A stretch of 64,000 nt of DNA from Candidatus Yanofskybacteria bacterium (GTDB lineage Bacteria; Patescibacteriota; Minisyncoccia; JACQLN01), in assembly GCA_943359335.1 (NCBI GenBank), contig CALRHC010000001.1:22466-86465 (forward strand), read 5' to 3'. Numbering within the stretch: position 1 is the first letter of the stretch; each line of letters opens with the position of its first letter. The notes under the pieces were generated by a model. The model worked only from the letters and a program-made list of their open reading frames with translations, was not told the origin of the DNA and did not search any database. Below, one piece after another: positions 3,375-43,254 of this stretch. The position numbers and the translations under genes are program-made.

Positions 3375-3458
3375 TTACTGTTTCGTCCCTAATAAAATGG
3401 GGACGATTTTTTTGTCTTCAAAAATTAGCCCGAGTAAAATCTAAAAATCACATTATAT

Positions 3459-3487
3459 TTGACATATAGTCAAATATTTGCTTTAAT
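3459..3487 (+). promoter_or_regulatory. sigma-70-type promoter (TTGACA-17-TTTAAT) upstream of lipoprotein gene
   Basis: TATATTTGACATATAG shares a 12-nt core with the promoter at 1783. Confidence 0.4.
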
Positions 3488-3539
3488 TTACACTCGTGTT
3501 CCTTGATTTTTTACTTTAATACCTTAAGTGGAGGTTGCA

Positions 3540-5474
3540 ATGATTCGTCGTCTGCTTTGTCTTTTTGCTATTTTGCTAGGCTTAAACGCCTGCGATAGCA
3601 AACGTGATGCGAACAAGATTTTGTCGCCAAATGTGGATGAAGAAGTGGTGGTCGCCCAAACGGAAAAAGAAGATACATCTTCTTGGGATTTAACCAAGGA
3701 TGTGTCTCTAGATTCTGTGCTGGCTATGCCAGTAGGTACAAAGATGTATTTTCGTACGGCTTTCGTCGGTAAGGTTTTGGAAGATTTCGAAGTCACTTTA
3801 GGTTATGGCAAAGTCGTATATGACCTCACTGCGCCGATGCCAGTGATACACTTGATAGCTTCCGACTCGAGGCTAATCGCTTTGGGTGGAGTATCTCACG
3901 GTATGAGTGGATCCCCAGTTTTTACCAAGGACGGCAAGGTCGGTGCGTTATCCATGAGTTTCGATGAGCAGACTGAGGACAAGAACATTGCTTTTTTTGC
4001 GACGTCGATTGAATGGATGAGGAAGGAAATTCCCAACAAGGAAATCAGGCTGGGTAAGCCGGTGGTTTGGAGGGGGTACATTGTAAGGCCATTGGCTCTT
4101 CCTCTGCTGATGTCTGGCGTTAACAATCATCTGATGAATGCGGCCATTCTCGAATACGCCGACAAACTGGGCGACGGCAATCTCAATATGTTATCGGCAT
4201 CAGGTTCGGCCGGAGCCGGTGGTAATATTGAACAGAAGTTTGAAGATGGTAGCCCGTTGACCGGAGTATTATTTACGGGAGACGAGGTGATCATCGGTGC
4301 CACAGGAACGGCAACCGATGTCCGAGGCAATAACATTTTCGGTTTCGGCCATCCCTGGTGGGGTAACGGGCAGACTTCGTTAGCCATGGTGGCCACCGAA
4401 ATTCTGGCCGAGGTTAGTGGTCCGTCGCCGTTCAAGTTAGCCAGGTTGGGCAATAAGGTTCTTGGGGAAATTATTTACGACCGTATGCCTGGAGTTGGGG
4501 GAGTTTTGGGCCAAATGCCCGAAATGATTCCCTTGGTTTTTAACGCTTCAATTTTTGGCGAGAAGGCGTTAAGCATGAATCATCAAATGTCTCCGGTAGT
4601 TTTATCCGGTTTCGACATGTTCATGCAGGCCATAATGGCCGGTACCACACTTCTTTCTCCTCTGGCCAATAGGCTAGACAATGCCAACGACAAAAGTTTG
4701 ATAGTTCGGACCAAAATCGACTTTAAGGGTTCTAACTTGAAGGTTGATTTTGAAAGGACTTATGCCCAGCCTCATGCTGGTGTATTGGATTTGATGAATG
4801 GTCCTTTGTTTGGTTTTGTTAATGCCTATTTAGGTTCTGTGGGTAACGATTATGCTGATCTGAAAGTTAGCAACATCCAAATGAATGTGGATGTTGTGGA
4901 CGAACCTTTGTTCGCAATCATACAAGGCTTCGAGGCGGATAGTGTCGTTACCGCTGGTAGTGATTTGCCAGTTAAGATCAGTTTAAGGGTTGGAGCAACT
5001 AAAGACGTCGATCTTAACTTGGCTTTTGCTGTGCCGGATAGTTTTGAGGCCGGCATCTATAGCCTGACGGTGGGTTCACTCGCAGCTTTGGAATATTCTT
5101 CCTATGAACCTTCCGATCCGAGCAAGTTTAAAAATCTGGAAGATGTGTTTGAAGACATCAACGAGGTTGATGGTAGTACCACTTTAAAGCTGGTTTTGTC
5201 TTTCAACGAGCCTTTGCCAGTGGAGGCCCCAGATAGCTTGGTGATTGTTGTGCCTGATACAGTAGTTGTGCCTGCTGATACAGTAAAGGTGGATTCACTG
5301 ATGCCTGTGCCACCACCAGTGATGGGTGGTGGTTCGATTGTGTCCTCACCAGGATTGCTACCTCCTTATCAAGAATCTATTGTCTATAACGATAAAGCCA
5401 GTATGGAAAAAAAGATAGACTGGGTTTTGCAGTATGATACAGGTACGGTTAAGGTGAAGGCGATGAAGAAGTAA
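3540..5474 (+). CDS. exported lipoprotein with SpoIVB/S55-like serine-peptidase motif (GMSGSP...GK.GA) and C-terminal Pro/Val-rich repeats
   Basis: ATG at 3540 preceded by GGAGG (the ORF-track start at 3528 is a GTG inside the SD); signal peptide MIRRLLCLFAILLGLNAC with a lipobox Cys; motif GGVSHGMSGSPVFTKDGKVGALSMSF resembles the catalytic-Ser region of peptidase S55; GC about 45-50% versus about 34% genome. Confidence 0.45.
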   Translation: MIRRLLCLFAILLGLNACDSKRDANKILSPNVDEEVVVAQTEKEDTSSWDLTKDVSLDSVLAMPVGTKMYFRTAFVGKVLEDFEVTLGYGKVVYDLTAPMPVIHLIASDSRLIALGGVSHGMSGSPVFTKDGKVGALSMSFDEQTEDKNIAFFATSIEWMRKEIPNKEIRLGKPVVWRGYIVRPLALPLLMSGVNNHLMNAAILEYADKLGDGNLNMLSASGSAGAGGNIEQKFEDGSPLTGVLFTGDEVIIGATGTATDVRGNNIFGFGHPWWGNGQTSLAMVATEILAEVSGPSPFKLARLGNKVLGEIIYDRMPGVGGVLGQMPEMIPLVFNASIFGEKALSMNHQMSPVVLSGFDMFMQAIMAGTTLLSPLANRLDNANDKSLIVRTKIDFKGSNLKVDFERTYAQPHAGVLDLMNGPLFGFVNAYLGSVGNDYADLKVSNIQMNVDVVDEPLFAIIQGFEADSVVTAGSDLPVKISLRVGATKDVDLNLAFAVPDSFEAGIYSLTVGSLAALEYSSYEPSDPSKFKNLEDVFEDINEVDGSTTLKLVLSFNEPLPVEAPDSLVIVVPDTVVVPADTVKVDSLMPVPPPVMGGGSIVSSPGLLPPYQESIVYNDKASMEKKIDWVLQYDTGTVKVKAMKK

Positions 5475-5481
5475 GCTCTTT

Positions 5482-5516
5482 AGAGCGAAGCGGAAAAACC
5501 GCTTCGCTCTTTTTAT
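5482..5516 (+). terminator. intrinsic terminator (AGAGCGAAGCGG-AAAAA-CCGCTTCGCTCT + TTTTT)
   Basis: 12-bp perfect stem followed by a T-run immediately after the stop at 5474. Confidence 0.75.
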
Positions 5517-5554
5517 TTTATTAAGATAATAAAAGTGATAAAATATAATATAAG

Positions 5555-6871
5555 ATGTTGCAAAATCCGTTTAGTTTAATATTCGATATTTTGGGAGTAG
5601 TCTCACACCATATTTGGTTATGGGGTTGGGTTTTTTTGCCGATTCTTTTGGCACCATTTTTATGGGATGCCTATATGTACCACATTCGTATTAAAACTTT
5701 AAAAAAATTTAAATGGCAGATGTTGGAATTTCGCTTACCGCCAGATGTGGAAAAAAGCCCATTGGCAATGGAACAGGTTTTAGCAATCTTACAAAGCACT
5801 CTTTTTAAAGGTGGTTGGTGGAAACGCTATGTGGAAGGGCGCGTTCAAGAATGGTTTAGTTTAGAAATAACTTCTTTCGAAGGCGAATTACATTTTTATA
5901 TTCGAACACTTGGGCAATTTAGAAATTTAGTTGAGGCGGCAATTTATGCACAATATCCACAAGCCGAAATTTTTGATGCTGAAGATTATACGGCAAACGT
6001 TCCAGCAATAATCCCAAACGAAACCCACGACCTTTTTGGTTGCGAACTTAAATTGGCACGTGAAGATGGTTACCCAATACGCACCTATAAAGATTTCGAA
6101 TTAAAGACCGAAAGTAGCAAAGAAGGTGGTTCTAATATTTCTTTGGTGGATCCTTTGGCGGGCATAGCCGAAACAATGACGCGTTTAAAAAAAGGTGAAC
6201 AAGCTTGGATTCAAATCGCTATAAGACCAACCGATGACGGTTGGAAAAAAGTAGCAATGGAGACGGTTTTAAAATTAGTCGGGCGCCCTAAAAAAGAAGT
6301 GCCACAGGGTTCTTATATGTGGGCGTTACTTAAAAAAGAATTATCCGATTTTGCTAAGGGAGCAGTGCAAGCGCCTTTTAAAACTCCGGAATTTGAACCT
6401 TTTGAATGGGGTTCACCAAAAAGTGATAAGCCTCACTCATTAATGCAGTTTCTTACTTCGGGTGAAAAAGAAATTATAGAGGCAATAGAAAGAAAAACCT
6501 CTAAAGTGGGTTTTGAGACAGTTATTAGAGTTGTGTATATAGGTACTAAAGAAGCTTTTTATATACCAACATTTTTTCAGGTGGCTTCCGGTTTTAACCA
6601 GTTTAGTACACAAAATTTAAATTCTATAAAAAGAGATGGCGCCACATTAACTGCAGGAAAATTTCCTTTTAAAAAATTTAAAGAAATGCAAAAGAAGAAG
6701 TGGATGTTATATAAATATAGAATTCGCGGCCGACCAGATACTATGTTTGTAATGAATACAGAAGAACTGGCAACACTTTACCACTTCCCAGGACGAGTTG
6801 TTATGGCGCCAAGCTTGCCTAGAGTTCAAGCTAAAAAAGGCGAACCACCAGCAGGATTACCCAGTTATTAG
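5555..6871 (+). CDS. hypothetical membrane protein (2 N-terminal TM segments plus large soluble domain), putative partner of the downstream ATPase
   Basis: 438 aa; hydrophobic N-terminus LIFDILGVVSHHIWLWGWVFLPILLAPFLW; no catalytic motif recognised. Confidence 0.5.
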   Translation: MLQNPFSLIFDILGVVSHHIWLWGWVFLPILLAPFLWDAYMYHIRIKTLKKFKWQMLEFRLPPDVEKSPLAMEQVLAILQSTLFKGGWWKRYVEGRVQEWFSLEITSFEGELHFYIRTLGQFRNLVEAAIYAQYPQAEIFDAEDYTANVPAIIPNETHDLFGCELKLAREDGYPIRTYKDFELKTESSKEGGSNISLVDPLAGIAETMTRLKKGEQAWIQIAIRPTDDGWKKVAMETVLKLVGRPKKEVPQGSYMWALLKKELSDFAKGAVQAPFKTPEFEPFEWGSPKSDKPHSLMQFLTSGEKEIIEAIERKTSKVGFETVIRVVYIGTKEAFYIPTFFQVASGFNQFSTQNLNSIKRDGATLTAGKFPFKKFKEMQKKKWMLYKYRIRGRPDTMFVMNTEELATLYHFPGRVVMAPSLPRVQAKKGEPPAGLPSY

Positions 6872-6896
6872 CTTCATTAGCTTTCAGCTTCTTTAG
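6868..6896 (+). repeat. left arm (AGCTTCATTAGC type) of the intergenic palindromic repeat family
   Basis: TTAGCTTCATTAGCTTTCAGCTTCTTTAG; its complementary arm lies at 7258..7289, beyond the four-helix-bundle gene. Confidence 0.6.
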
Positions 6897-6903
6897 ATAT
6901 TAG

Positions 6904-7266
6904 ATGATAAATTCTTACAAAGATTTAATTGTTTGGCAAAAATCATTGAAGTTATCATTGTTGGCTTATGAACTTACCGAAAAATTTCCAAAAGAAGAAA
7001 TCTATGGCTTAACATCGCAAATAAGAAGATCGGCAGTATCAATACCGTCTAATATAGCTGAAGGAAGATATAGAGGGACAAAAAATGATTTTACTCAGTT
7101 TTTAAGAATAGCTTATTCTTCGGGCGCAGAATTAGAGACACAAATAGAAATAGCTAGAAATTTATCAAAGACAAAAGATTTAGATTATTCAAAAATAGAT
7201 ATTTTAATAGTAGAGGTTATGAAGATGTTAAATGTTATGATAAGAAATATAAATCCTAAAAGCTAA
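6904..7266 (+). CDS. four-helix-bundle protein (23S rRNA intervening-sequence protein family)
   Basis: 120 aa, LIVWQKSLKLSLLAYELTEKFPKEE...QIRRSAVSIPSNIAEG..F..IAYSSGAELETQIEIA is the signature of this family. Confidence 0.75.
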   Translation: MINSYKDLIVWQKSLKLSLLAYELTEKFPKEEIYGLTSQIRRSAVSIPSNIAEGRYRGTKNDFTQFLRIAYSSGAELETQIEIARNLSKTKDLDYSKIDILIVEVMKMLNVMIRNINPKS

Positions 7267-7289
7267 AGAAGCTAGTGAAGCTAAAAGCT
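7258..7289 (+). repeat. right arm (GCTAATGAAGCT type) of the palindromic repeat family, ending at the ATG at 7290
   Basis: AGCTAAAGAAGCTAGTGAAGCTAAAAGCT|ATG; same arm precedes ATGs at 15601, 20835, 23430, 33591 and 36412(-). Confidence 0.6.
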
Positions 7290-9005
7290 ATGAATGACGA
7301 AATAACTTTATTTGCCGAAACAAATTTTAGAAACGAGAAGCGTCGTTTTGGTATTAAAAAAGACGATCGCCGCAGGCACACCTATATTATTGGAAAAACC
7401 GGTATGGGTAAAACGACCATGCTCGAAAACATGATTATTTCGGATATTATTCATGGCAAGGGTTTAGGTTTTATAGACCCACACGGGGATTCGGCCGAGA
7501 AAATTTTAGAATTTGTTCCACCAGAACGCATAAACGATGTAATTTATTTCGATCCTTCCGATTTAGAAATGCCTATAGCTTTTAATGCTATAGAAAATGT
7601 TGAAGCCGAAAAAAAGCATTTAGTAGCTTCGGGTTTGATGGGTGTGTTTAAAAAAATCTGGCCCGATGTATGGTCGGCCAGAATGGAATATATTTTAAAC
7701 AATACTATTTTAGCTTTGCTAGATTACCCTGGCGCCACTATTTTGGGTATTATGCGAATGCTTTCTAATAAAGAATACCGCAAGCAAGTGGTGGATGAAA
7801 TTAAGGATCCAATGGTTAAATCTTTCTGGGTAGATGAATTTGCTAAGTATACAGATAGATTTGCGGCCGAAGCCACTCCAGCTATTCAAAACAAAGTTGG
7901 GCAGTTTTTATCGGCTGCGGTTATTCGTAATATTGTAGGCCAAGTAAATAGTGCTATGGATATGCGCAAGGTTATGGACGAAGGCAAGATTTTAATTATG
8001 AACCTTTCCAAGGGCAAAATCGGCGAAGATAATTCTAAACTTTTGGGTGGTTTGCTGGTTACAAAATTACAGTTAGCAGCTATGAGCCGTGTAGATATTC
8101 CCGAAGAAGACCGTAAAGATTTCTTTTTATACGTAGACGAGTTTCAGAATTTTGCGACAGAATCTTTTGGTAATATTCTTTCCGAAGCTCGCAAATATCG
8201 CTTAGCCCTTATTTTGGCTAATCAGTACATTGCTCAATTAGTGCAAAGCGTGGGTGGTTCTAAAAGCACAGCGGTGCGAGACGCAATATTTGGTAACGTT
8301 GGTACCCTAATTTCTTTTAGGGTAGGCGCCGAAGATGCCGAATATTTAGAAAAAGAATTTGCACCAGAATTTGTGGCAACCGATATTGTTAATTTAGCCA
8401 AATACAATGTTTACTTAAAACTTATGATAGACGGCGCAGCTTCGCGGGCTTTTTCGGCCACAACTTTAGCTCCATACCCAAAACCAGCTGTTAATAATCG
8501 CGATGCCATTATTAAACATTCTAGGGAAACTTATGGCACACCTCGCGAAGACGTAGAAAATGAAATAGCCGATTGGGCTGGTGTTAGAGATTTAATGCCA
8601 TCTAGTATAAAAGCAGCAAAAGCAGAAAGTGATGCTGCTTTTCGTGATGGTTACGATACAGAAGCCGCACCAGCGGTTTCTGCTTCCAAGCCAAAAAGCG
8701 ACAAAGATCTTTTTGAAGCTGTTTGTTGGGAGGGTGGGGAAAAAGTTTGGGTGCCATTTAAACCAGATGGAGTCCGCCCAATTTATTGTAAAAACCATTT
8801 ATATAAATTAAACGAAGTTAAACAGCAAGTTATTTTTGAACAGTTTAAACCAGTAAGTTTGAAAGATGCTTTGCAGAAGGGCGGCATAGTTAATCACATA
8901 GGTAATAATCCTCGTCCAAATAAAAAGAAAAATAAACCTAAAGAACCTCCAGCCGATATAGAAGGTTTGCGTTCGCTGCTTTCCGATATCAAGCCAACTA
9001 CTTAA
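7290..9005 (+). CDS. P-loop ATPase of the TraD/VirD4/HerA-FtsK-like superfamily (T4SS DNA-binding-domain type) with C-terminal Cys/His zinc-ribbon-like motif
   Basis: Walker A IIGKTGMGKTT, Walker B LYVDEFQNF; C-terminus CWEGGEKVWVPFKPDGVRPIYCKNH; start set at ATG 7290 (ORF-track GTG 7275 lies inside the repeat arm) by analogy with the other repeat copies. Confidence 0.6.
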   Translation: MNDEITLFAETNFRNEKRRFGIKKDDRRRHTYIIGKTGMGKTTMLENMIISDIIHGKGLGFIDPHGDSAEKILEFVPPERINDVIYFDPSDLEMPIAFNAIENVEAEKKHLVASGLMGVFKKIWPDVWSARMEYILNNTILALLDYPGATILGIMRMLSNKEYRKQVVDEIKDPMVKSFWVDEFAKYTDRFAAEATPAIQNKVGQFLSAAVIRNIVGQVNSAMDMRKVMDEGKILIMNLSKGKIGEDNSKLLGGLLVTKLQLAAMSRVDIPEEDRKDFFLYVDEFQNFATESFGNILSEARKYRLALILANQYIAQLVQSVGGSKSTAVRDAIFGNVGTLISFRVGAEDAEYLEKEFAPEFVATDIVNLAKYNVYLKLMIDGAASRAFSATTLAPYPKPAVNNRDAIIKHSRETYGTPREDVENEIADWAGVRDLMPSSIKAAKAESDAAFRDGYDTEAAPAVSASKPKSDKDLFEAVCWEGGEKVWVPFKPDGVRPIYCKNHLYKLNEVKQQVIFEQFKPVSLKDALQKGGIVNHIGNNPRPNKKKNKPKEPPADIEGLRSLLSDIKPTT

Positions 9006-9456
9006 ACTTTATAGGTATTTCTATTTTATCGTCGTGTTCGGGCAATCCGGATGGATTGTCTTTTTTTAGTATTAAAAAACCAGTGCTTGTTGTTGGTTCT
9101 TTTTCAAAATAAAATTCTTGAGAAAACGGAACAAAATCTGTGGTCATCCATTCTGCTTTTGCTTGAATTGGTTCTAAAAGTAAAACATTTTCATCTGCAT
9201 CTTTAAGTTCTATTGGAAACGAAGCTTCGAAATACCAATTGCCTCTGGCTTCGCCTTCTATTACAAATGGATTTGTTATAATATCCCCAGCTTTAATATT
9301 ATTAACTTTAATTAAATCTTTTTTAGCATCTATTTTTTCTTGGTAACTAGAAATAAATTCTTTAGAAAAAACCGGAGCATATTTTTTATAAACAAATAGT
9401 CCTAGTATAGAAATGGCTGTTACGAAGCAGATAAATATAAGTAATTTTTTAAGCAT
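8998..9456 (-). CDS. hypothetical N-terminally anchored or exported protein (152 aa)
   Basis: Single N-terminal hydrophobic helix LLIFICFVTAISILGLFVY; no motif. Confidence 0.4.
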   Translation of the reverse strand: MLKKLLIFICFVTAISILGLFVYKKYAPVFSKEFISSYQEKIDAKKDLIKVNNIKAGDIITNPFVIEGEARGNWYFEASFPIELKDADENVLLLEPIQAKAEWMTTDFVPFSQEFYFEKEPTTSTGFLILKKDNPSGLPEHDDKIEIPIKFK

Positions 9457-9512
9457 AGATTAAGTTTAAACCAGATGTGACAAAATATCCAAAAAATGAT
9501 ATTTATTAATTT

Positions 9513-10616
9513 ATGTCAAATAGTGTTGATCGAAAGGTATACATAGGAATGTCGGGCGGGGTTGATAGCTCTGTTGCCGCTTTGTTGTTAAAAAACGAAG
9601 GCTATAATGTAACCGGTGTTTTTATGAAAAACTGGAGCGATCCAGCTTGGCCTTGCCCATGGGAAGAAGATCGCGCCGATGCTATGCGAGTTTGTTTAAA
9701 ACTTGGTATACCTTTCGAAACTTGGGATTTTACTAAAGAATACAAAGAAAAAGTTGTAGATTATATGATCCGCGAATACGCGGCCGGCCGAACGCCAAAC
9801 CCAGATGTAATGTGCAATAAAGAAATTAAGTTTGGTTTATTTTTTAATAAAGCCATAGAACTTGGTGCAGATTTTATTGCAACGGGACACTATGTGAGAA
9901 AAATCAAAAATCAAAAATCAAATCTCAAAAATTATGTACTCGCTCGCGCTCGCTATTTAGATAAGGATCAGTCTTACTTTCTTTGGACGCTCAAGCAGGG
10001 TCAGATAGAAAAATGTTTGTTTCCAATAGGCGAAATAGAATCTAAAGCCGAGGTTAGAAAAATTGCAGAAGGAGCAAGCCTGCCTACGGCAGGTAAAAAA
10101 GATTCGCAGGGAATTTGTTTTATGGGACCGGTAGATATAAAAGAATTTATAAAACCATTTGTTAAAAAAGAAATTGGCGATATTGTTACAACTTCTGGCC
10201 CTGGTCGGGCAAGCCAAAAAGTTGGCACGCATGGCGGTTTAGATTTTTATACTATCGGCCAACGCAAAGGTGTCGGCATTGGCGGCACGGGACCATATTA
10301 TGTTGCTAAAAAAGATTACGAAACTAATACACTAATTGTTTCACCTGTTACAGATATGCAATCATTGGAATCCAAATCGCTTACAGCTTCCGATATAAAT
10401 TTTATAGATGAGCGATTTGTCCCGAGTGCAGCCGAGGGAATCCAAATTCAAGCTTCTATTCGTTATCGCCAAGAACCAGTCTCGGCAGTATTGTCGAAAT
10501 TAGAAAACAATAAATACAAGGTAGAATTTGAAAAACCAGTTCGTGCCGTATCTTCCGGCCAATCAGTTGTGTTTTATAATGGAGACGAAATGTTGGGTGG
10601 TGGCGTGATAGAATAA
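9513..10616 (+). CDS. mnmA: tRNA-specific 2-thiouridylase MnmA
   Basis: PP-loop SGGVDSSVAA, catalytic Cys region, C-terminal barrel; contains a low-complexity insert KIKNQKSNLKN encoded by (ATCAAAA)3. Confidence 0.85.
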   Translation: MSNSVDRKVYIGMSGGVDSSVAALLLKNEGYNVTGVFMKNWSDPAWPCPWEEDRADAMRVCLKLGIPFETWDFTKEYKEKVVDYMIREYAAGRTPNPDVMCNKEIKFGLFFNKAIELGADFIATGHYVRKIKNQKSNLKNYVLARARYLDKDQSYFLWTLKQGQIEKCLFPIGEIESKAEVRKIAEGASLPTAGKKDSQGICFMGPVDIKEFIKPFVKKEIGDIVTTSGPGRASQKVGTHGGLDFYTIGQRKGVGIGGTGPYYVAKKDYETNTLIVSPVTDMQSLESKSLTASDINFIDERFVPSAAEGIQIQASIRYRQEPVSAVLSKLENNKYKVEFEKPVRAVSSGQSVVFYNGDEMLGGGVIE

Positions 10617-14597: not shown

Positions 14598-14655
14598 CTT
14601 GAAACTCGCAACTTGTAGCTTGTAACTCAAAAAGTTTCAAGCTTCAGGTTACAAG
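14598..14655 (+). promoter_or_regulatory. H-type pseudoknot in the rpmJ-rpsM leader (candidate S4-type autoregulatory element)
   Basis: Helix 1 CTTGAAACT(14598-14606)/AGTTTCAAG(14633-14641); helix 2 CTTGTAAC(14619-14626, inside loop 1)/GTTACAAG(14648-14655); 3' strand overlaps the AAGG just upstream of the rpsM ATG. Confidence 0.45.
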
Positions 14656-15082: not shown

Positions 15083-15520
15083 ATGGGTAAAAAAAGAATT
15101 ATAGAAAAAGAGGAAAAGACAGGTGAAGCTTCAGAGGCTAAAGCTGCTCCAGCACAGAGCCGTAAGGTTGGTGCTGTAGAAAAGGGTAGGGTTTATATTC
15201 AGGCTAGCTATAACAATACTTTAATTAGTTTCACAGATGATGGAGGAAACTTGATTGCTCAGTCTTCAGCTGGAGCCTTAGGTTTTAAAGGACCAAGAAA
15301 AGCTACTCCATATGCTGCTAATAGAATAATCGAAACTTTGGGAGAAAAAATGAAGAAGGTTGGTTTAAGGGATGTAGTGGTTTTTGTAAAAGGCATTGGC
15401 TCTGGTAGAGAAGCTGCAGTTAGAGCTTTAGTAGGACAAGGTTTAAATGTTACTTCTATAAAAGATGTAACCCCTGTACCGCATAATGGCCCTAAGCCAC
15501 CTAAACCAAGAAGGGTATAA
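15083..15520 (+). CDS. rpsK: 30S ribosomal protein S11
   Basis: YIQASYNNTLISFTDDGGN...GFKGPRKATPYAA. Confidence 0.9.
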   Translation: MGKKRIIEKEEKTGEASEAKAAPAQSRKVGAVEKGRVYIQASYNNTLISFTDDGGNLIAQSSAGALGFKGPRKATPYAANRIIETLGEKMKKVGLRDVVVFVKGIGSGREAAVRALVGQGLNVTSIKDVTPVPHNGPKPPKPRRV

Positions 15521-15600
15521 ATCATCAGCTTCACTAGCTTCATTAGCTTATTAGGATATCAAACCTAAAAACTAAAGAAGCTAAAAGCTAAAAGCTAAAC
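15521..15600 (+). repeat. intergenic palindromic repeat (AGCTTCACTAGCTTCATTAGC ... GAAGCTAAAAGCTAAAAGCTAAAC|ATG)
   Basis: Member of the six-copy family; fills the whole rpsK-rpsD spacer and ends at the rpsD ATG. Confidence 0.6.
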
Positions 15601-16206
15601 ATGTATCAATCAACTTGTAAAAAATGCAGAAGACTAGGTTATAAGGTGTGTGATTCCGCTAAATGCGGTATGGTTCGCAAACCTTATCCACCAGGACAGC
15701 ACGGAAAAAATATTCGTCGCCGTCTTTCTGAATATGGAACCCAGCAAGCCGAAAAACAAAAGCTTAAACTTATTTATGGTTTAAGAGAAAAACAATTTAA
15801 AAAATATTTTGATACGGCTTCTAAAAAAAGCGGTATTACTCCTCAAATAATGATGGAGCTTTTAGAACGAAGATTAGACAATGTTATTTTTAGATTAGGA
15901 CTTGCTCCAACCAGACGTGCCTCAAGGCAATTAGTTGGGCATGGTCATATCACAATAAATAGCAAAAAGGTTAGCTCACCGTCTTATTCTGTGAGCCCAG
16001 GGGAATTAATAGATATTAAAGAATCCAGCAAAGCTAAAAAGACTTTTTCTGAAACCAAAACAATTTTAAAGAAATTTAATCCACCAAGATGGTTAGAGTT
16101 AGATAAAGAAAATCTTTCCGGAAAAGTGATTAGCGTACCAGATAAAGAATTTTTAGCTGGATTACCGGTAGAGGTTTCAAAAGTTTTGGAATATTATTCA
16201 AGATAA
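15601..16206 (+). CDS. rpsD: 30S ribosomal protein S4
   Basis: N-terminal Cys cluster CKKCRRLG..C..C, YPPGQHG, S4 domain. Confidence 0.9.
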   Translation: MYQSTCKKCRRLGYKVCDSAKCGMVRKPYPPGQHGKNIRRRLSEYGTQQAEKQKLKLIYGLREKQFKKYFDTASKKSGITPQIMMELLERRLDNVIFRLGLAPTRRASRQLVGHGHITINSKKVSSPSYSVSPGELIDIKESSKAKKTFSETKTILKKFNPPRWLELDKENLSGKVISVPDKEFLAGLPVEVSKVLEYYSR

Positions 16207-18287: not shown

Positions 18288-18308
18288 GTCTATATACAAA
18301 AAAACAGC

Positions 18309-18345
18309 TCCGATCGATATCGGAGCTGTTTTTTATTACTTATTA
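18309..18345. terminator. bidirectional intrinsic terminator (ACAGCTCCGAT-CGAT-ATCGGAGCTGT flanked by A-run/T-run) between convergent rpsI and the 18343 gene
   Basis: Near-identical to the hairpin at 2896; A-run on the left and T-run on the right. Confidence 0.7.
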
Positions 18346-19753: not shown

Positions 19754-20758
19754 ATGTCGGTAAAAATTGGAATTGATTTGGGAACCGCTAATATTTTGGT
19801 GTTTGTCCCGTCAAAAGGGATAGTTATTAACGAGCCTTCAGTGGTAGCGGTTTCTTTAGATGAAAACAAAATTATGGCGGTTGGGCACGAGGCTAAAGAG
19901 ATGATTGGTAGAACACACGAAGGTATTATAGCTGTTCGGCCCGTTAAAGATGGAGTTATTGCGGATTATCGTATAACCGAAGCTATGATTCGGCACTTTA
20001 TTAAAAAAATAACCGGCAGGTTTAGCTTTTTTAGGCCTGAAGTTATGGTGGCAGTTCCGGCTGGTGTAACATCAACCGAAAGACGGGCTGTTATAGAAGC
20101 TACACTTAAAGCAGGGGCTAAGGCAGCATATGTTGTTAAGGAACCAATTCTTGCTGCTTTAGGCGCTGGCATACCTATAAACGAAGCTTCGGGTAATATG
20201 ATAATAGATATAGGCGGAGGCACTACAGAGGTGGCTGTAATATCGTTAGGAGGGATTGTGGCGTGGGCATCGGCTCGTGTTGGGGGTAATGCAATTGATA
20301 CAGCTATTCAAAACTATATTCACAAGGTTCATAATTTAGCTGTAGGCGAGCGTACTGCCGAGCAAATTAAAATTGCAATAGGTTCTGCTGTGCCAAAAAA
20401 AGAAGAAGAAATTTTAGAGATTCGTGGCCGTGACCTCGTGGCTGGTTTGCCTAAAACCATAGAACTCCATTCCAACGAAATTCCTAAAGCCATAAAAGAT
20501 ACTTTGGCTGAAATTATAAAGACAGTAAAAATGGTTTTACAAGAAACTCCACCCGAGCTTTCCGCTGATATAATGGATAAAGGCATGATTATTTCTGGTG
20601 GTACAGCTTTATTGCGAAATTTGGATAGTTTAATAACTCAAGAAACTGGCGTGCCTTGTTATGTTGCCGATGATCCACTTTTCTGTGTGGTTAAAGGCAC
20701 AGGGATAGCTTTAGAAAATTTAGAATTATATAAAAGAGCGTTGTTTGCTAAGAGATAG
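19754..20758 (+). CDS. mreB: rod-shape-determining protein MreB (copy 1)
   Basis: Actin-fold motifs IGIDLGTANILV, VAVPAGVTSTERRAV, IIDIGGGTTEVAVISLGG. Confidence 0.85.
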   Translation: MSVKIGIDLGTANILVFVPSKGIVINEPSVVAVSLDENKIMAVGHEAKEMIGRTHEGIIAVRPVKDGVIADYRITEAMIRHFIKKITGRFSFFRPEVMVAVPAGVTSTERRAVIEATLKAGAKAAYVVKEPILAALGAGIPINEASGNMIIDIGGGTTEVAVISLGGIVAWASARVGGNAIDTAIQNYIHKVHNLAVGERTAEQIKIAIGSAVPKKEEEILEIRGRDLVAGLPKTIELHSNEIPKAIKDTLAEIIKTVKMVLQETPPELSADIMDKGMIISGGTALLRNLDSLITQETGVPCYVADDPLFCVVKGTGIALENLELYKRALFAKR

Positions 20759-20834
20759 CTTCAAAAGCTTGTTAGCTTCTTTAGCTTGGTTAGGAAAATC
20801 TAAAAGCTAATGCAGCTAATGAAGCTAAATTTTA
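20759..20834 (+). repeat. intergenic palindromic repeat (AGCTTGTTAGCTTCTTTAGCTT ... AAGCTAATGCAGCTAATGAAGCTAAATTTTA|ATG)
   Basis: Family member ending at the holB ATG. Confidence 0.6.
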
Positions 20835-21581
20835 ATGTATTCTCGTCAACTAAAATATTTAGATCTAGTTTTAAAGAACAACGCAGTGCCTCACGCTTTT
20901 CTTTTTTATGGTTCCGATTTTAATTATCAAGTTAATTTAGCCAAAGATTTTTTAATAAAAATAAACAAAGCCGAAGATAAAAAACAAATAATAAACGAAT
21001 CTCATCCCGATACTATTTTTATAAGCCGTGAAGATGAAAAAAAAGAAATAGGCATTGCTCAAATGAGGCGTCTTAAGGATTTTGCATCTTTAACCTCGAA
21101 CCACCTTAAATGTAAGGGTATTTTTATAAAGGAAGCTGAATATTTAAACGAAGAGTCTTGGAACGCGCTTTTAAAAACACTAGAAGAACCAATGGGTAAT
21201 AGTATTATCTTTATTCTTTCTAGTAACATTAAAAACATACCAAAAACTATTGTTTCTCGGGTTGTGAGCTTACCTTTTTATAATGAGGATATTTTAAACA
21301 AAGTCCATAGTCCAAAAGATGATATAATTATTACTAAGCTTTGCAGTATAGAAAAACTTGCTTTTGCAGAAAGAATTGATTTAGCAGAAGAAATAGCAAA
21401 AAAAGAAAATTTTTTTCCGTTATTAGACACTTGGCTAATTAAATTAAGATCAGATTTGCTAGTTAATAATAAAAAAGAAACAGCCGAGTTTATGGAAAGT
21501 TTGGCTAAAGCAAAAAATATTTTACTTTCGACCAACGTAAATACCCGTTTAGTTTTGGAGAATTTATTTTTTAGGGTTTAG
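20835..21581 (+). CDS. holB: DNA polymerase III delta-prime subunit (clamp-loader, AAA+ lid)
   Basis: VPHAFLFYGSDFNYQVNLAKDFL plus the sensor region; 248 aa. Confidence 0.6.
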   Translation: MYSRQLKYLDLVLKNNAVPHAFLFYGSDFNYQVNLAKDFLIKINKAEDKKQIINESHPDTIFISREDEKKEIGIAQMRRLKDFASLTSNHLKCKGIFIKEAEYLNEESWNALLKTLEEPMGNSIIFILSSNIKNIPKTIVSRVVSLPFYNEDILNKVHSPKDDIIITKLCSIEKLAFAERIDLAEEIAKKENFFPLLDTWLIKLRSDLLVNNKKETAEFMESLAKAKNILLSTNVNTRLVLENLFFRV

Positions 21582-21624
21582 TTTAGGATTTAAAAAGTTT
21601 TAAGTTATAGGTTACAAGATTTTT

Positions 21625-22827: not shown

Positions 22828-23358
22828 ATGGAGACACAAGAATTTAAAATTAAACTAAAAGAAGTCGCTACATTTTTGGCGAACGAACTATCAAAAGTGC
22901 GCAGTAACCGTGCTTCACCAGCTTTAGTGGAAGATATATCGGTAGATTATTTTGGCAATAAGACTCCAATAAAGGGTATTGCTAGCATAAGTTCATTAGA
23001 CGCTAGAACCTTGGTTATAGAACCTTGGGATAAAAGTGCCTTGGAACCAATTGCAAAGGCTATTGCCAATGCTAGTATTGGCGCGCAACCTATTGTAGAT
23101 AGCAAAAGCGTTAGATTAAGCTTGCCACAATTAACTCAAGAGCGTAGGCAAGAACTTATAAAATTGGTTTCTCAAAAAATGGAAGAAGCAAAAATAAGAG
23201 CTCGCAGATTGCGTGATGATGCCGTAAAAAGCGCCCAGCAAGAAAAATCCGAAGATATTAAGTTTAGAAAGAAAGACGAAATCGAAAAGGCGATGAAAGA
23301 AAATAATCAGGCTTTGGAAGATTTAAAAAGTAAAAAAGAGAAAGAGTTAATGAACTAG
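22828..23358 (+). CDS. frr: ribosome recycling factor
   Basis: LSKVRSNRASPALVEDISVDYFGNKTPIKGIASIS...LPQLTQERRQELIK. Confidence 0.9.
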   Translation: METQEFKIKLKEVATFLANELSKVRSNRASPALVEDISVDYFGNKTPIKGIASISSLDARTLVIEPWDKSALEPIAKAIANASIGAQPIVDSKSVRLSLPQLTQERRQELIKLVSQKMEEAKIRARRLRDDAVKSAQQEKSEDIKFRKKDEIEKAMKENNQALEDLKSKKEKELMN

Positions 23359-32846: not shown

Positions 32847-33506
32847 GTGCCCATAGCTCAAACTAAAGACAATTTAAAGCTCAATGATTATTTAACAGAA
32901 AGAAGAAAATTTTTAAAGATTTCTTTCGGGGATTTGGTTACAAAAACAGGAATTCCGGCGAAGCATTTAAAAAAAATTGAAAAAGGTGAGTGGTGCGATC
33001 TGCCCTCGGGGGTTTATGTTAAAGGTTTTTTAAAAAAATATGCCGGAGTGGTTGGCTTAGACGAAAACGAATTAGCTTTAAGATATGAAAACGAATGGCA
33101 GCAGATTTGCAAAATTGATTTACCCAAACAAGGTAATAAAACCTTAAATAAAATAAATTTTCTAAAACAATTTTCTTTCAGGTGGGTTGTTTTGGGAGTT
33201 ATCGGAGTTTTTGTGCTATTTTATATCGGTTGGCAGTTTAAAGTTATTTTAGAAAAACCAGATTTAAATTTGAATTATCCTATTGGAAGCGATACTATTG
33301 TGGATAATCCTAAGATGGAGTTTAAAGGAAAAGTTTCGGAAGATTCAGTCTTAACTATAAATAATGAAATAGTCTTGATGACAGAGGATGGATCTTTTAT
33401 TAAGGAAGTGGAATTACTTAATGGAATCAATACATTCGAGATAAAGGCAGTAAGTAGATTTGGTAAAGAAAATAAAATAATTAGACGGGTAACATATAAT
33501 CCATAA
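32847..33506 (+). CDS. rodZ: RodZ-like HTH/TM cytoskeleton protein (GTG start)
   Basis: N-terminal XRE-type HTH with YVKGFLKKYAGVVGLDENEL (RodZ signature), single TM, C-terminal beta domain. Confidence 0.5.
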   Translation: MPIAQTKDNLKLNDYLTERRKFLKISFGDLVTKTGIPAKHLKKIEKGEWCDLPSGVYVKGFLKKYAGVVGLDENELALRYENEWQQICKIDLPKQGNKTLNKINFLKQFSFRWVVLGVIGVFVLFYIGWQFKVILEKPDLNLNYPIGSDTIVDNPKMEFKGKVSEDSVLTINNEIVLMTEDGSFIKEVELLNGINTFEIKAVSRFGKENKIIRRVTYNP

Positions 33507-34634: not shown

Positions 34635-34636
34635 AC

Positions 34637-34738: not shown

Positions 34739-35614
34739 ATGCCTCGTAAACGTCAGGCTGCCGAATTAGTTTTTGATGATGAGTCTGAATTGTTAATTTA
34801 TTTTAATGATATAGAAAATTCAAGAGGTCTCTCAGCAGAGATAGAACAAGTACTTTCAAGGGATATAAAAAATGGAGACGAGGAAGCTCTAAAAAGACTT
34901 GTTTCGAAAAACCTTCGCTTTGTTGTTAGTATTGCTAAAGAATATGTGGGTAATGGTGTATCTCTCCCTGATCTAATTCAAGCCGGTAATATGGGTCTTA
35001 TTGTGGCAGCTAAGAGATTTGATGGAACAAAGGGTTTTAAACTTATTTCATATGCTGTCTGGTGGATAAGGCAAGGAATTCTTCAGACTTTAGCGGAACA
35101 TTCTCGTATAGTTCGTTTGCCAACAAATAAAGTTGGTGAACTGATTAGATTGGGTAAGATAGATAAAAAAATGACTCAAGTCTTGGGACGCGCTCCAACT
35201 ACAAAAGAAATTACTGAGGCATACAAAGAGATTGATAATATTGAAGATCTTAGGATGATATCACAAAAGCCGGTTTCTTTAGACGAAAGGCTTGAAGACG
35301 ACAGTCTGAATACTTTTTTAGATTATTTAACGGATAACAGTCAGTCTGTAGAAGAATCTATAGAAGTTAGCGAGATACGTACTATTATTTCCGATGGTAT
35401 AAAACTCCGTTTGGATGATAGAGAAGCTAGGGTTATAAGGCGTTATTTTGGTTTAGATGGAGCTCCTCCTCAAACCTTAGAACAAATAGCTACAGAGTTG
35501 AAAGATAAAAAAGGAACTAGAAAACTAACAAGAGAAAGAGTTCGTCAAATAAAGGAAAGGGCTTTGCCCAAGTTGCGTGCCTATATTAGAAGTAGAATGG
35601 TTGATGTTCTTTAA
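34739..35614 (+). CDS. RNA polymerase sigma factor, sigma-70 family (alternative; regions 2-4 only), strong SD AAAGGAGG
   Basis: Region 2 LVSKNLRFVVSIAKEYVGNGVSLPDLIQAGNMGL..YAVWWIRQ, region 4.2 TLEQIATELKDKKGTRKLTRERVRQIKERAL. Confidence 0.75.
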   Translation: MPRKRQAAELVFDDESELLIYFNDIENSRGLSAEIEQVLSRDIKNGDEEALKRLVSKNLRFVVSIAKEYVGNGVSLPDLIQAGNMGLIVAAKRFDGTKGFKLISYAVWWIRQGILQTLAEHSRIVRLPTNKVGELIRLGKIDKKMTQVLGRAPTTKEITEAYKEIDNIEDLRMISQKPVSLDERLEDDSLNTFLDYLTDNSQSVEESIEVSEIRTIISDGIKLRLDDREARVIRRYFGLDGAPPQTLEQIATELKDKKGTRKLTRERVRQIKERALPKLRAYIRSRMVDVL

Positions 35615-35616
35615 AC

Positions 35617-35929: not shown

Positions 35930-36412
35930 TTAGAAGGGAATGTCCGAAATGTCAACTTCCTCGGCATCTTGTTCTATTATTGGTATGTTTTCTTCTTTTT
36001 GATTTTGACTTCTTTCTTGGGGTTTATTTGCTACTGGAGTATTTGGTCTGCTAGATGTAAAACTTGCTCCGCTTGTCTCACCAGCTGTTCTGGGTCCTAA
36101 CTGTATAGCTTCGGCGACAACTTCGGTTCTGTATTTTTTTGTGCCATCGGCTGCGTCCCAGCTTCGGTTTTGAATTCTACCTTCTACTAAAACCATTTTG
36201 CCCTTGTTTAAATATTTGGCACAGGTTTCAGCCATTCTGCCAAAAACAACAACATTATGAAACTGAGTATCTTGTTGTTTTTGTCCGCTTTTGTCGTTCC
36301 ATACTCTGTTGGTAGCAACTGCAAAGCTTGCGACAGTTCCGCCTGATGGTAGCGAACGCACTTCTGGGTCTCGGGTTAAATTACCAAGAACAAATATTTT
36401 GTTAAGATTCAT
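35930..36412 (-). CDS. ssb: single-stranded DNA-binding protein
   Basis: OB fold NKIFVLGNLTRDPEVR...FHNVVVFGRMAE..YL.KG..V.VEGR; acidic tail ending DISDIPF. Confidence 0.9.
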   Translation of the reverse strand: MNLNKIFVLGNLTRDPEVRSLPSGGTVASFAVATNRVWNDKSGQKQQDTQFHNVVVFGRMAETCAKYLNKGKMVLVEGRIQNRSWDAADGTKKYRTEVVAEAIQLGPRTAGETSGASFTSSRPNTPVANKPQERSQNQKEENIPIIEQDAEEVDISDIPF

Positions 36413-36497: not shown

Positions 36498-36959
36498 CTA
36501 CTTAAGTAATTCTTCTAATTTTTTATCAACTTCTTCTGTATTCATTTCTACAACTTCTGGTTTTTGTTCAACTACAGGAGCGGTCTCGAAAACAGGAGCA
36601 GGTTTTCTTTCTGTTCTATATTGGCGAGGTTCAAATACAGGTAACGATTTTGTCTTCTTTAACATTTTTTCTGTCTTGGCAATAAGCATATAGCGCAAAA
36701 CATTTTCGCCGTGGCGTAATTGAGTTTCAACTTCTTTAGGAAAGATAGCTTCTTCTCCACCAGAAAGTTCTAAATCTACAGTGTTACCCTGCATAGAATG
36801 TTTAATAGGGTATGGTAAATATTCTCCTAATTTTATTTTAGAGTATGTGATCCCAAAACCACTTTTTGCTAAAGTATCGGTTGTTTCGGAAACAAATTTA
36901 TTAACGCCTTCTTCGTTTAAAGTTGGCTTTAAAACAATATATAGTTCGTACAATCTCAT
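36498..36959 (-). CDS. rpsF: 30S ribosomal protein S6
   Basis: MRLYELYIVLKPTLNEE...; start moved to the internal Met (36959) because S6 begins MR.YE..; rpsF-ssb-rpsR order conserved. Confidence 0.85.
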   Translation of the reverse strand: MRLYELYIVLKPTLNEEGVNKFVSETTDTLAKSGFGITYSKIKLGEYLPYPIKHSMQGNTVDLELSGGEEAIFPKEVETQLRHGENVLRYMLIAKTEKMLKKTKSLPVFEPRQYRTERKPAPVFETAPVVEQKPEVVEMNTEEVDKKLEELLK

Positions 36960-37124
36960 AGACCCGAGTTTATCAGGTTTTACTTGCCAAAACAAGAGGT
37001 TTAGGTTGACTATTGACAATACCTTTAATATAGACTATACTATAACCATAGTTCATTTTTTATAAAATAGGCGGCGACGGCCTATGACGGTCGCTATTTA
37101 AATGTTTTTCAATGGGAGGTTCCT

Positions 37125-41163: not shown

Positions 41164-43254
41164 TTACTCTTTGCCAAGGAATTTTTTCCAGCCAGGGAAA
41201 TCCTTATAGAAATAATATGGATTACCCGGAAGTTTTGGATCATTTCTATATGATCTTGTATACATAGGTCCTGAGATGATGTTCAGCTTTATCGCCGCTC
41301 TAGAAGCTTCTTTCCATGTTTTGTACTTAATGGATCCACCCAAGAATATAATCCAGCCAGGGAAATCTTTATAAGTCTCATCCGGATTACTTGGGAGTCT
41401 CTCATCTTTTTTGTAGTATCTTTGATACTTGGGTCCAGATGTGATGCCTAGAGATATGGCCGCTACTCCTGCCTCTTGCCAAGTCGGATATCTAACAGTT
41501 CTGTCTAAGAATACTGACCATCCCGGAAAGTTTTGGTAAGTAATTCTAGGTATTGATGGTAGCTTTCTATCTTTTTTATATTCTCCACTTTTATAACCAG
41601 ATGATGTTTTGATGCTCAACTTTACCGCCGCTCTAGAAGCTTCTTGCCAAGTTGGGTAAAAAATATTTTGTAAGAATTCTCCATATCCAGGAAAATCAGG
41701 ATAGGTACTGTTTGGATTTGATGGTAGCCTAGGGTCTTCCTTGTATCTCTCGTTCTTCTTGTAGTCTGTCGTATCTCTAATACCCAACTTTATCGCCGCT
41801 CTAGAAGCTTCTTGCCATGTCGGATACACATTTTCAGCAGTACGCTTGGGACCGCCCTTTCCTAAAAAAACATTCCAACTAGGAAAGTTTTTATAGGTAT
41901 ATGATGGATCTGGTGGTAACTTGTTATCTTTGCGATACATCTCTCGGTATTCGGATACTTTTTTAAGACCAAGTTTTTGTGTGGCTTGTGACGCTTCTTC
42001 CCATGTAGTATAGAATTCTCTTTCGCAATGATCTAGAACTTTCATTAAATCCACTACCTCATCAGAGAAAGTGAACTCAAATCCCTTTCCAGACACTTCA
42101 AACTTTTGTCTAGTATAACCTTCATGTTCTATCTCTTTTTTAGAAGTGTATTCTTCGTGAAGATTGGAAATTTTGTTCATCATCTCAAGTACTAGCTGAA
42201 TACGCTCAAGATTTCCCACAAAGTCTAGAACTATGAGCTTATCTTTTCCAGGACGAAGTCCGCGGCCAAGTTGTTGCCGAAAGACAGTCAAAACTCCAGT
42301 AACTCGGCAGAATGCAACCAATCCAACAGATGGAACATTAACTCCTTCGTTGAAAGCATTTACTGCACATACCCTGCGAACCGTTCCGTTATGCAAAGCT
42401 CCGAGAACTTTTTGGTTCTTACTCCAAGAGTCGTTCTTGTCTTTGCCTTTGCGTGAATGAAATGTTTCTGAAAGTTCAAGTGATTTACTGAGTCTTTCAG
42501 CGTGGGTAATTGAGTCGCAAAATACAACTGCTTTTTCAAGATAACCATTTATGATTCTCGTGATTTCTTCGTCACGTTTCCTTATAAAGATTCGGCGGTT
42601 AACTTCTGCCATGGTAAAACGTTTCTTGCCTTCATGGATTTCAGCTGTAATTTCTTGAAGTACTTTATCGTCCAAACTCTGGTCGGTAATAACGTGATAC
42701 TCAATTCTAGGAAGCCAACTACGGGCAATAGCTTCTTCTAGAGTTATGTTAATCACTTCGGGACCAAAGATGCTACGAATGTCTGCTCCATCTTCGCGGT
42801 CAGGTGTAGCAGTAAGACCGAGCTTAGCTCCGGTGAAGTAATTAGTTACTGGTCGATACGTTTCAGCTTCCGAGTGATGGGCTTCGTCTACGATGATCAA
42901 ACCAAAATGATTTCGTGACCATTGTTTAAGATTGTTTCTCATGGTCTGCCAAGTGGCAAAAACAATATCTCCTTCTTTTGCTCCGTTCTTTGACATGCCA
43001 TTATATATAACCATTCTAGTTTTTCTTTCATCAAAAACTAGGCCGAATTCATCAAGGGCGTGTTTCAGAATATGGTTGTTATGAACCAAAAACAAGGTTT
43101 TTTTGGGACGAAATTTCTTTGTAACAAATATAGCTGTTAGGGTTTTGCCCAAACCAGTAGCCATTACAACCAATGCTCTTTTAGAGTGACTACGTAATTC
43201 TTTCAGAGCGGCTTTAGTGGCTAGCTCTTGGTAAACACGAGGTTCTATCTTCAA
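41164..43254 (-). CDS. SF2 DEAD/DEAH-box (ResIII-type) helicase with five C-terminal tandem repeats of about 55 aa
   Basis: Walker A MATGLGKT, DEAH box IVDEAHH, helicase-C QQLGRGLR; repeats YPTWQEASRAAIKLGI...YK.D.RLPSNP..TY.DFPGW..FLG x5; GC about 41%. Confidence 0.65.
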   Translation of the reverse strand: MKIEPRVYQELATKAALKELRSHSKRALVVMATGLGKTLTAIFVTKKFRPKKTLFLVHNNHILKHALDEFGLVFDERKTRMVIYNGMSKNGAKEGDIVFATWQTMRNNLKQWSRNHFGLIIVDEAHHSEAETYRPVTNYFTGAKLGLTATPDREDGADIRSIFGPEVINITLEEAIARSWLPRIEYHVITDQSLDDKVLQEITAEIHEGKKRFTMAEVNRRIFIRKRDEEITRIINGYLEKAVVFCDSITHAERLSKSLELSETFHSRKGKDKNDSWSKNQKVLGALHNGTVRRVCAVNAFNEGVNVPSVGLVAFCRVTGVLTVFRQQLGRGLRPGKDKLIVLDFVGNLERIQLVLEMMNKISNLHEEYTSKKEIEHEGYTRQKFEVSGKGFEFTFSDEVVDLMKVLDHCEREFYTTWEEASQATQKLGLKKVSEYREMYRKDNKLPPDPSYTYKNFPSWNVFLGKGGPKRTAENVYPTWQEASRAAIKLGIRDTTDYKKNERYKEDPRLPSNPNSTYPDFPGYGEFLQNIFYPTWQEASRAAVKLSIKTSSGYKSGEYKKDRKLPSIPRITYQNFPGWSVFLDRTVRYPTWQEAGVAAISLGITSGPKYQRYYKKDERLPSNPDETYKDFPGWIIFLGGSIKYKTWKEASRAAIKLNIISGPMYTRSYRNDPKLPGNPYYFYKDFPGWKKFLGKE

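Follow-up and report, generated by a model that had tools for sequence, protein, structure and literature searches.

Intervening sequences (IVSs) of the 23S rRNA that contain an open reading frame (ORF) are found in Leptospira, Coxiella burnetii and Xanthomonas, with the S23p/IVP ORF lying in helix 45. The function of the four-helix-bundle proteins encoded by IVSs has been an open question since 1993, and the IVP family to which they belong is very large, with at least about 8000 candidates and more than 100 clusters at 68-78% identity among the matches listed. Here, we describe an IVP gene and the two inverted repeat arms that enclose it, together occupying positions 6868-7289 of a 64,000-nucleotide stretch of DNA from Candidatus Yanofskybacteria bacterium (hereafter the window), and compare this locus with its relatives and with other IVP genes; the reading that we favour, and consider probable, is that it is an IVS-type gene cassette residing in an mRNA operon, with hairpin relatives that lack the ORF.

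The best described comparator is the Coxiella 23S IVS, which has a 28-bp terminal stem and tandem heptamers upstream of its ORF and is excised by RNase III, an excision reported also for Salmonella and Leptospira (PMC4990558). Other places in which IVP genes are on record lie within cas operons (PMC3936711) and in 16S and 23S insertions of the Candidate Phyla Radiation (CPR) (bioRxiv 10.1101/2024.02.27.582315). A separate literature concerns intergenic heptamer repeats, and two papers (PMC4692102, PMC4679880) describe such arrays in Xanthomonas, Nostoc, Beggiatoaceae and Bacteroidetes, among them GGGAATC in Xanthomonas with its 70-75 convergent inverted pairs, TAACTGA in Beggiatoaceae, cyanobacteria and Bacteroidetes, and the cyanobacterial short tandemly repeated repetitive (STRR) sequences. 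The origin of these abundant repeats is so far unexplained, and a term search of both papers finds no mention of IVP genes.

The gene, its arms and the interrupted gene pair

The protein matches PF05635 (23S_rRNA_IVP) over profile positions 1-105 of 106 with 124.1 bits (E 3.5e-36; cut-off 33.8) and TIGR02436 with 119.4 bits (cut-off 24). Its AlphaFold2 model (pLDDT 92) has four helices at residues 5-26, 36-57, 60-85 and 96-116, and the closest PDB structures found by Foldseek are Xcc0516 (2GSC; TM 0.82-0.87, 42% identity) and then BT_0352 (2RLD; TM 0.76-0.84), all of which bears out an earlier note on this DNA that had called the product a four-helix bundle of the 23S-IVS type. The published family motif, GxxRxxxSxxxNxxE (PMC3936711), is present as RxxxSxxxNxxE, its polar residues R42, S46, N50 and E53 showing little or no variation among 28 homologues and the position of its leading glycine being taken by Q39. 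Against the copies from the related loci L001 and L002, the ratio of non-synonymous to synonymous substitution (dN/dS) is 0.05-0.13, indicating purifying selection; judged by this conservation, the protein is functional.

The gene lies exactly between the two arms of one repeat, as had been claimed. The left arm is composed of T/G-rich, TAG-bearing units (TTAGCTTCA, TTAGCTTTCAG, CTTCTTTAG and ATATTAG), the first of which holds the TAG stop codon (6869-6871) of the upstream gene, and the right arm runs over the last IVP codons (P K S) and the TAA stop to end one base before the ATG (7290) of the downstream gene. In the minimum-free-energy fold of 6850-7310, the arms pair with each other, and the duplex computed for the two arms has -39.8 kcal/mol and comprises some 30 bp in three near-contiguous helices. 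The motif TTAGCTTNNNTAGCTT, allowing at most one mismatch, occurs 19 times in the window where 0.43 occurrences are expected, and none of 100 shuffled sequences reaches 19, so the similarity between the arms and the other repeat loci is not due to chance, the possibility that the earlier note had held open against itself.

The motif defines five palindromes that lack an ORF (Table 1), every one of which occupies the stop-to-start gap of two co-directional genes. When the ORF is removed from the cassette, what is left aligns arm for arm with the five palindromes, the ORF taking exactly the position of the loop. These loops measure about 6-20 nt, rather than the 20-40 bp that had been given for the spacing of the arms at other loci. 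The idea that the ORF-less palindromes are oriented relative to transcription was dropped, as a palindrome reads alike on both strands. A second palindrome family is represented at 14616-14655 and 21579-21618 (TAGCTTGTAACTC...GGTTACAAG and TAGTTTAGGATTT...TTATAGGTTACAAG), just 5' of the ATG codons at 14669 and 21625; similar units make up the AAGTTAT/GGTTACAAG arms of a distant IVP subfamily found at locus L073.

The cassette separates a membrane-protein gene (MEM) from a gene for a coupling ATPase, and its status as an insertion is shown by the same junction in relatives. A metagenome scan with the ATPase yielded 80 loci, the close relatives being Parcubacteria/Patescibacteria groundwater assemblies, which points to a CPR bacterium as the most likely source of the window. 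The MEM/ATPase pair is conserved in 76 related loci; in roughly 40 of the 76 the intergenic distance is at most 35 nt or the reading frames overlap. What the cassette interrupts is a pair of genes that normally adjoin or are translationally coupled, and the empty site that the earlier note had proposed to look for exists in L003 (ATPase 82% and MEM 72% identical to the window), where only TCCTAT separates TAG from ATG and this 6-nt gap holds no trace of arms. L004 (76%) likewise has no IVP gene. Comparison of the L003 site (TAG-TCCTAT-ATG) with the filled site reveals no target-site duplication, and no transposase is seen in the immediately flanking genes, the two marks by which a miniature inverted-repeat transposable element or an element of the insertion-sequence type would be recognized.

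At the same junction, L001 and L002 carry the IVP gene (88% and 94% identical) with the same arms, and these two loci and the window share an identical stretch of approximately 38 nt that runs from AATCCTAAAAGC to the ATPase ATG. No relative was found that has the gene at this site without arms. The more distant L073 and L074 have a member of another IVP subfamily here (34-38% identical, with an in-frame stop in L074) and arms that differ from those of the window, being (ATAACTT)x4 with (AAGTTAT)x3, and of the CATGRAACA type; many further relatives have ORF-less palindromes of other short units in the MEM|ATPase gap. One recurrent palindrome at this junction is bounded by CCCCGT(T)AG...CTA(A)CGGGG (L004 about 728-768, L008 1071-1155, L017 3910-3994, and the gaps of L054 and L056, in which it encloses about 340 nt). 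Two large gaps are without a tblastn match to IVP, those of L035 (1003 nt, with a 127-aa ORF) and L075 (790 nt, with a 101-aa ORF); the L035 ORF, at 3439-3822, may from its sequence be NYN/LabA-like.

The gene and its arms across the IVP family

The association of gene and arms extends far beyond this junction. With an IVP alignment as query, a scan limited to one genome per species found 80 loci, distributed over Patescibacteria, Bacteroidota, Clostridia, Acidobacteriota, Desulfobacterota, Gammaproteobacteria, Chloroflexota and other groups. For each ORF, the strongest local inverted repeat joining its 90-nt upstream and 90-nt downstream flanks was scored, with ORFs of 90-200 aa in the same loci serving as controls. 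At a score of at least 24, flanking inverted repeats were present at 64 of 84 IVP genes (76%) versus 13 of 267 control ORFs (5%), which, together with the stem at the present locus, upholds the comparison drawn in the earlier note with the layout of an IVS, an ORF in the loop of an inverted-repeat stem. The arms are usually tandem arrays of 7-9-nt units; by a strict criterion of 80% self-match, either flank is periodic at 34 of 87 loci versus 14 of 252 controls, with period 7 dominant.

The arms also have a fixed polarity relative to the gene. The upstream flank has more G than C in 72 of 85 IVP loci and the downstream flank more C than G in 70 of 85, controls being unskewed, and TAG upstream and CTA downstream each occur 2.7 times per 60 nt (controls, 0.7 and 0.6). 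Composition is not the whole of it, since, when every left arm is paired with each of the 87 right arms, that of its own cassette ranks first at 22 loci and among the top three at 39, and self pairs have a mean duplex energy of -35.9 kcal/mol compared with -22.4 kcal/mol for non-self pairs; the arms are matched within cassettes beyond their shared composition. Gene and inverted arm arrays are thus found together again and again in this family, and their polarity is fixed. The setting is typically that of an operon, with co-directional ORFs on both sides at 68 of 87 IVP loci (controls, 75 of 189) and median gaps of about 40 nt. Rfam finds no rRNA in the window, and none is present around the seven IVP loci with no ORF downstream. 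In many loci, ORF-less palindromes built of the local IVP-arm unit lie nearby (for example L117, L141, L122, L112, L146, L083).

A few individual arms merit description in their own right. At L098 (5356-5440), the right arm has grown to about nine tandem CCTAACCTC units, and at L117 (5660-6170; Thiohalocapsa) ORF-less GTGGATA/TATCCAC arrays of the local IVP-arm unit lie inside an apparent coding sequence. In four Flavobacterium loci (L115, L123, L124, L134), the left arm stands about 70 nt 5' of the IVP ATG, and the AT-rich spacer resembles a Bacteroidetes promoter, which these cassettes may thus bring with them.

Several lines of evidence bear out the suggestion, made in the earlier note, that these genes travel with their arms. 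In the IVP tree, the clade of the window nests with L083, L163, L165 and L168, all of which have TAGCTT-type arms and occupy unrelated positions in other genomes, 5' of prgI, fpg and traC-like genes. L168 holds two copies of the cassette (9018-9533 and 9933-10448) at adjacent intergenic sites flanking prgI in an operon resembling that of a type IV secretion system (T4SS); they are about 98% identical over some 470 nt that include the inner arms, and a CAA-to-TAA nonsense mutation interrupts the first, so that the pair is a recent duplication in which one copy is turning into a pseudogene. Two further contigs, L137 and L105, each have two IVP genes with different arm units, and arm type therefore follows the cassette and not the genome.

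Synonymous divergence at the present junction tells a similar story. Between the window and L001, the proportion of identical four-fold degenerate sites is 0.67 in the IVP gene (n=30), 0.36 in the ATPase gene (n=193) and 0.27 in MEM, the host genes being near saturation (Fisher test, IVP against ATPase and MEM, p 0.002 and 0.0005). Versus L002, the IVP and ATPase genes agree (0.74 and 0.72), which argues that the IVP gene is under no special synonymous constraint, and nucleotide identity rises stepwise at the arms. These comparisons point to a history of the cassette at this site that is younger than that of the host genes, and hence to horizontal exchange; the simplest reading would be horizontal exchange into the same junction or arm-mediated exchange between resident cassettes. 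The empty site of L003 could reflect either gain elsewhere or precise loss.

Inheritance is not always so fluid. In Flavobacteriia, the IVPs at sdhA|sdhB, upstream of a MINLFNTHIE... gene (labelled 'ndpA') and at tilS form site-specific clades, indicating vertical inheritance, and the arm sequences at these sites diverge between genera yet look self-complementary by inspection, which suggests either selection for pairing or the copying of one arm from the other. In six loci from different Flavobacteriaceae genera (L111, L118, L125, L131, L140, L145), the cassette stands directly 5' of a MNLTLKIWRQKNA... gene, provisionally read as sdhB (which would make this the sdhA|sdhB junction); the IVPs there are near-monophyletic and the arm units differ in each genus. 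Seven CPR loci (L083, L085, L088, L092, L096, L107, L168) have the cassette directly 5' of prgI (M(Q/R)F(K/Q)VPQF...), with polyphyletic IVPs and unlike arms; cassettes may favour this position for insertion, or the insertion may be ancient.

Layout of the locus and neighbouring features

The features of the locus and the ORF-less palindromes of the window are collected in Table 1. The domain matches of the flanking genes agree with the earlier identification of a membrane protein and a TraD/VirD4-like ATPase, and MnmA and AlaS are further neighbours. For the ATPase, the start codon is the ATG at 7290 and not the GTG at 7275 of the ORF listing, its N-terminus MNDEITLF being kept in relatives.

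Table 1. Coordinates of the cassette, its host genes and the ORF-less palindromes (dG, free energy).
Feature	Position	Strand	Remarks
Terminator-like hairpin (5482-5510), then promoter-like site (5521-5549)	5482..5549	+	Sequence prediction
Upstream host gene (MEM), 438-aa DUF8128-type protein with hydrophobic N-terminus	5555..6871	+	Faint DUF8128 match on the L001 orthologue
Left arm of the cassette, TTAGCTTCATTAGCTTTCAGCTTCTTTAGATATTAG	6868-6903	+	TAGCTT-type units
IVP gene, 120 aa, PF05635/TIGR02436 four-helix-bundle protein	6904-7266	+	Profile search
Right arm of the cassette, CCTAAAAGCTAAAGAAGCTAGTGAAGCTAAAAGCT	7257-7289	+	AAGCTA-type units, A/C-rich, CTA-bearing
Downstream host gene, VirD4/TraD-like coupling ATPase with C-terminal treble-clef zinc finger	7290..9005	+	TrwB_AAD_bind, TraG-D_C, T4SS-DNA_transf
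ORF-less palindrome	15526-15600		Fills gap between 15083..15520 and 15601..16206; dG -21, z -4.2
ORF-less palindrome	20756-20830		Upstream TAG stop in first unit; next gene at 20835; z -3.0
ORF-less palindrome	23355-23429		Upstream TAG stop in arm; next gene at 23430; z -6.2
ORF-less palindrome	33511-33585		Between 32847..33506 and gene starting 33588/33591; dG -33.2, z -4.6
ORF-less palindrome	36416-36492		Between minus-strand genes 36498..37019 and 35930..36412

The predicted signals ahead of MEM are the likely start of a MEM-IVP-ATPase transcription unit. Since these signals precede the first gene and a search for promoter-like or terminator-like sites on the + strand found none inside the cassette, the three genes probably share one transcript. 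No Shine-Dalgarno sequence precedes the IVP gene, the ATPase gene or the genes that follow the palindromes, an absence that is uninformative, as it applies to 43 of the 58 genes of the window and such sites are seen in only 15.

Elsewhere in the window, near-identical G+C-rich, terminator-like hairpins (AAAAACCCTCCGA...TCGGAGGGTTTTT) occur at 34632-34668, 35612-35648 and 18296-18332; two of these, 97% complementary to each other, lie inverted on either side of the gene 34739..35614. ARAGORN calls a tRNA-Phe with anticodon AAA at 30261-30336, next to a tRNA-Gly(GCC), where Rfam finds one tRNA only at its gathering score, so that the call is false or the tRNA an unusual one. At 55723-56168, RNase P RNA is matched over 446 nt against a model of 367 positions, probably owing to inserted helices, and inside the minus-strand ORF 41164..43254 a unit of about 165-168 nt occurs four times in tandem (41255-41826) as a repeated protein module.

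Competing explanations and described systems

If the element is an IVS-type cassette of an operon, its parts suggest how it would be accommodated. The arms would form a stem of about 30 bp in the MEM-IVP-ATPase transcript, and RNase III would cut this stem, freeing the IVP message and leaving the host cistrons intact; such a separation would render the insertion harmless, or at least tolerated. The fixed polarity of the arms would suit translation. The TAG-rich left arm would supply stop codons for upstream frames, and in many relatives it ends in an AGGA-like sequence that may act as a start signal for the IVP. The A/C-rich right arm, ending at the next start codon, would act as a leader for the following gene, a property that would make the cassette insertable between coupled genes. 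Spread would most likely proceed through arm-to-arm homology, by recombination or gene conversion into palindromes with matching units, and hairpin-mediated deletion would yield the ORF-less copies. More speculatively, and by analogy with Avd, the accessory protein of diversity-generating retroelements (DGRs), an IVP pentamer may bind the arm hairpin. A broader version of this reading, tentative and rather unlikely, would make IVP cassettes the ORF-bearing members of a widespread and hitherto unrecognized class of hairpin elements, with intergenic short-unit arrays (possibly the CPR palindromes, the Xanthomonas GGGAATC pairs, the TAACTGA repeats and the cyanobacterial STRR) as ORF-less derivatives, the 23S IVS as a special landing site, and a pentamer whose binding to the arm hairpin aids maintenance, processing or spread.

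A number of observations sit uneasily with the favoured reading. Cleavage by RNase III at this locus would be assumed purely from analogy, and no RNase III signature motif is found in the window, which is only part of the genome; the IVS protein of Coxiella is apparently not expressed (PMC4990558). The whole 461-nt region folds no more stably than shuffled sequences (z 0.08), a value that carries little information. Compensatory pairs are lacking among the window, L001 and L002, because only the left arm varies, the right one being the same in all three. Among the strong cases of the survey, the arm duplex is more stable on the sense strand in 27 and on the antisense strand in 41 (Wilcoxon p 0.035), giving the sense strand no advantage; there is therefore no G:U signature of selection on the RNA, and the complementarity could be kept at the level of DNA. 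The host tree built from four-fold sites places L001 with L003 and L004, two loci without the cassette, whose history therefore requires horizontal exchange or losses.

A different account, which we regard as unlikely, takes its cue from the REPINs formed by repetitive extragenic palindromic (REP) sequences and their RAYT transposases, and casts the IVP as a trans-acting factor that mobilizes or binds the arm arrays, the ORF-less palindromes being non-autonomous derivatives that it spreads and maintains. The layout is indeed that of RAYT genes within inverted REPs, the window having one cassette and five ORF-less palindromes, and ORF-less arrays share the unit of the local IVP arms in many phyla; the strong purifying selection on the protein, with its invariant polar R42, S46, N50 and E53, the DNA-like complementarity of the arms with no G:U bias, and the binding of nucleic-acid stem-loops by the structural relative Avd (bioRxiv 10.1101/2023.10.23.563531) would all suit such a factor. 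Yet nuclease, transposase and HUH motifs are absent from the IVP, which matches no such family, IVPs that are 50-78% identical across phyla have entirely different arm units, which argues against sequence-specific recognition, IVPs at certain sites are vertically stable over long periods, and the empty site of L003 is without a target-site duplication. It is also conceivable, if distinctly unlikely in our estimation, that the palindromes are host intercistronic elements, perhaps RNA-processing, mRNA-stability or translational-coupling hairpins, and that an unrelated IVP gene recombined into the loop of one of them, in which case the arms would be the host's. This would fit the greater number of ORF-less palindromes and the precision with which they fill stop-to-start gaps, the ORF-less palindromes of short units that occupy the MEM|ATPase junction in many relatives, and the heptamer arrays ending before start codons that are known without IVP from PMC4679880 and PMC4692102. 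It fits poorly with the presence of arms at 76% of IVP genes (84 loci, many phyla) as against 5% of control ORFs, with the G-rich/C-rich polarity fixed relative to the IVP reading frame, with the arm types of L137 and L105, which go with the cassette and not with the contig, with the inclusion of the inner arms in the L168 duplication, and with the armless empty site of L003.

That the gene might encode a DGR Avd protein is suggested by a weak match to NF033474 (20.5 bits) and by structural matches to 4DWL/8UB7 (TM about 0.76-0.83). The score is far under the cut-off of 80 bits, identity to the Avd structures is 12-14% compared with 42% to Xcc0516, and no reverse transcriptase or pair of template and variable repeats (TR/VR) is seen among the neighbours, making this identity scarcely credible and, for this locus, effectively refuted.

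The favoured reading, an IVS-type cassette with ORF-less relatives, gains its interest from what it joins. This locus and the survey present the gene with its inverted arms as one conserved unit of fixed polarity that lives mostly within operons and not in rRNA only, and whose ORF-less relatives are built of the same units. Two descriptive puzzles, the IVS-encoded proteins and the intergenic heptamer repeats, thereby become testable through RNase III processing at the hairpins, binding of arms by IVP and arm-mediated exchange of cassettes. For annotation, the unit accounts for the seeming interruption of operons such as cas, T4SS and sdh by IVP genes, and for the short-repeat arrays beside these genes. 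Subscription literature excepted, we found no published description that connects inverted arrays of short units with the IVP genes that they flank outside rRNA.

Set beside the described systems, the cassette has partial likenesses to several. With Avd it shares the four-helix-bundle fold of a pentameric barrel family, and Avd binds RNA stem-loops in DGRs (bioRxiv 10.1101/2023.10.23.563531); it differs in its context, with no reverse transcriptase or TR/VR seen, and in a sequence score under the family cut-off. As in REP/REPIN systems with RAYT, the intergenic palindromes are specific to the genome, inverted units form doublets about a short spacer, and one gene lies within inverted units; the protein, however, is a four-helix bundle without the features of a Y1/HUH (IS200/IS605-like) transposase, and the arms are tandem 7-9-nt arrays rather than a single REP hairpin. 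The intergenic heptamer repeats are similar in their 7-nt tandem units, their intergenic position often ending at the next start codon, their forward stop codons and inverted pairs, and a patchy distribution that suggests horizontal spread.

The closest likeness in protein and architecture alike is to the 23S IVS, which has the same protein family, an ORF in the loop of a long terminal-inverted-repeat stem, short tandem repeats in the 5' arm before the ORF (GACAGAT x3 in Coxiella), coexisting ORF-less and ORF-containing versions, and a weak or absent Shine-Dalgarno sequence. In contrast to an IVS, which occupies helix 25 or 45, the cassette lies between protein-coding genes of an operon, its arms consist of TAGCTT units with a 9-nt period that are common to dispersed ORF-less palindromes, and excision by RNase III would be expected here by analogy; and unlike the decaying ORF of the Coxiella IVS, the ORF of this cassette is under purifying selection.

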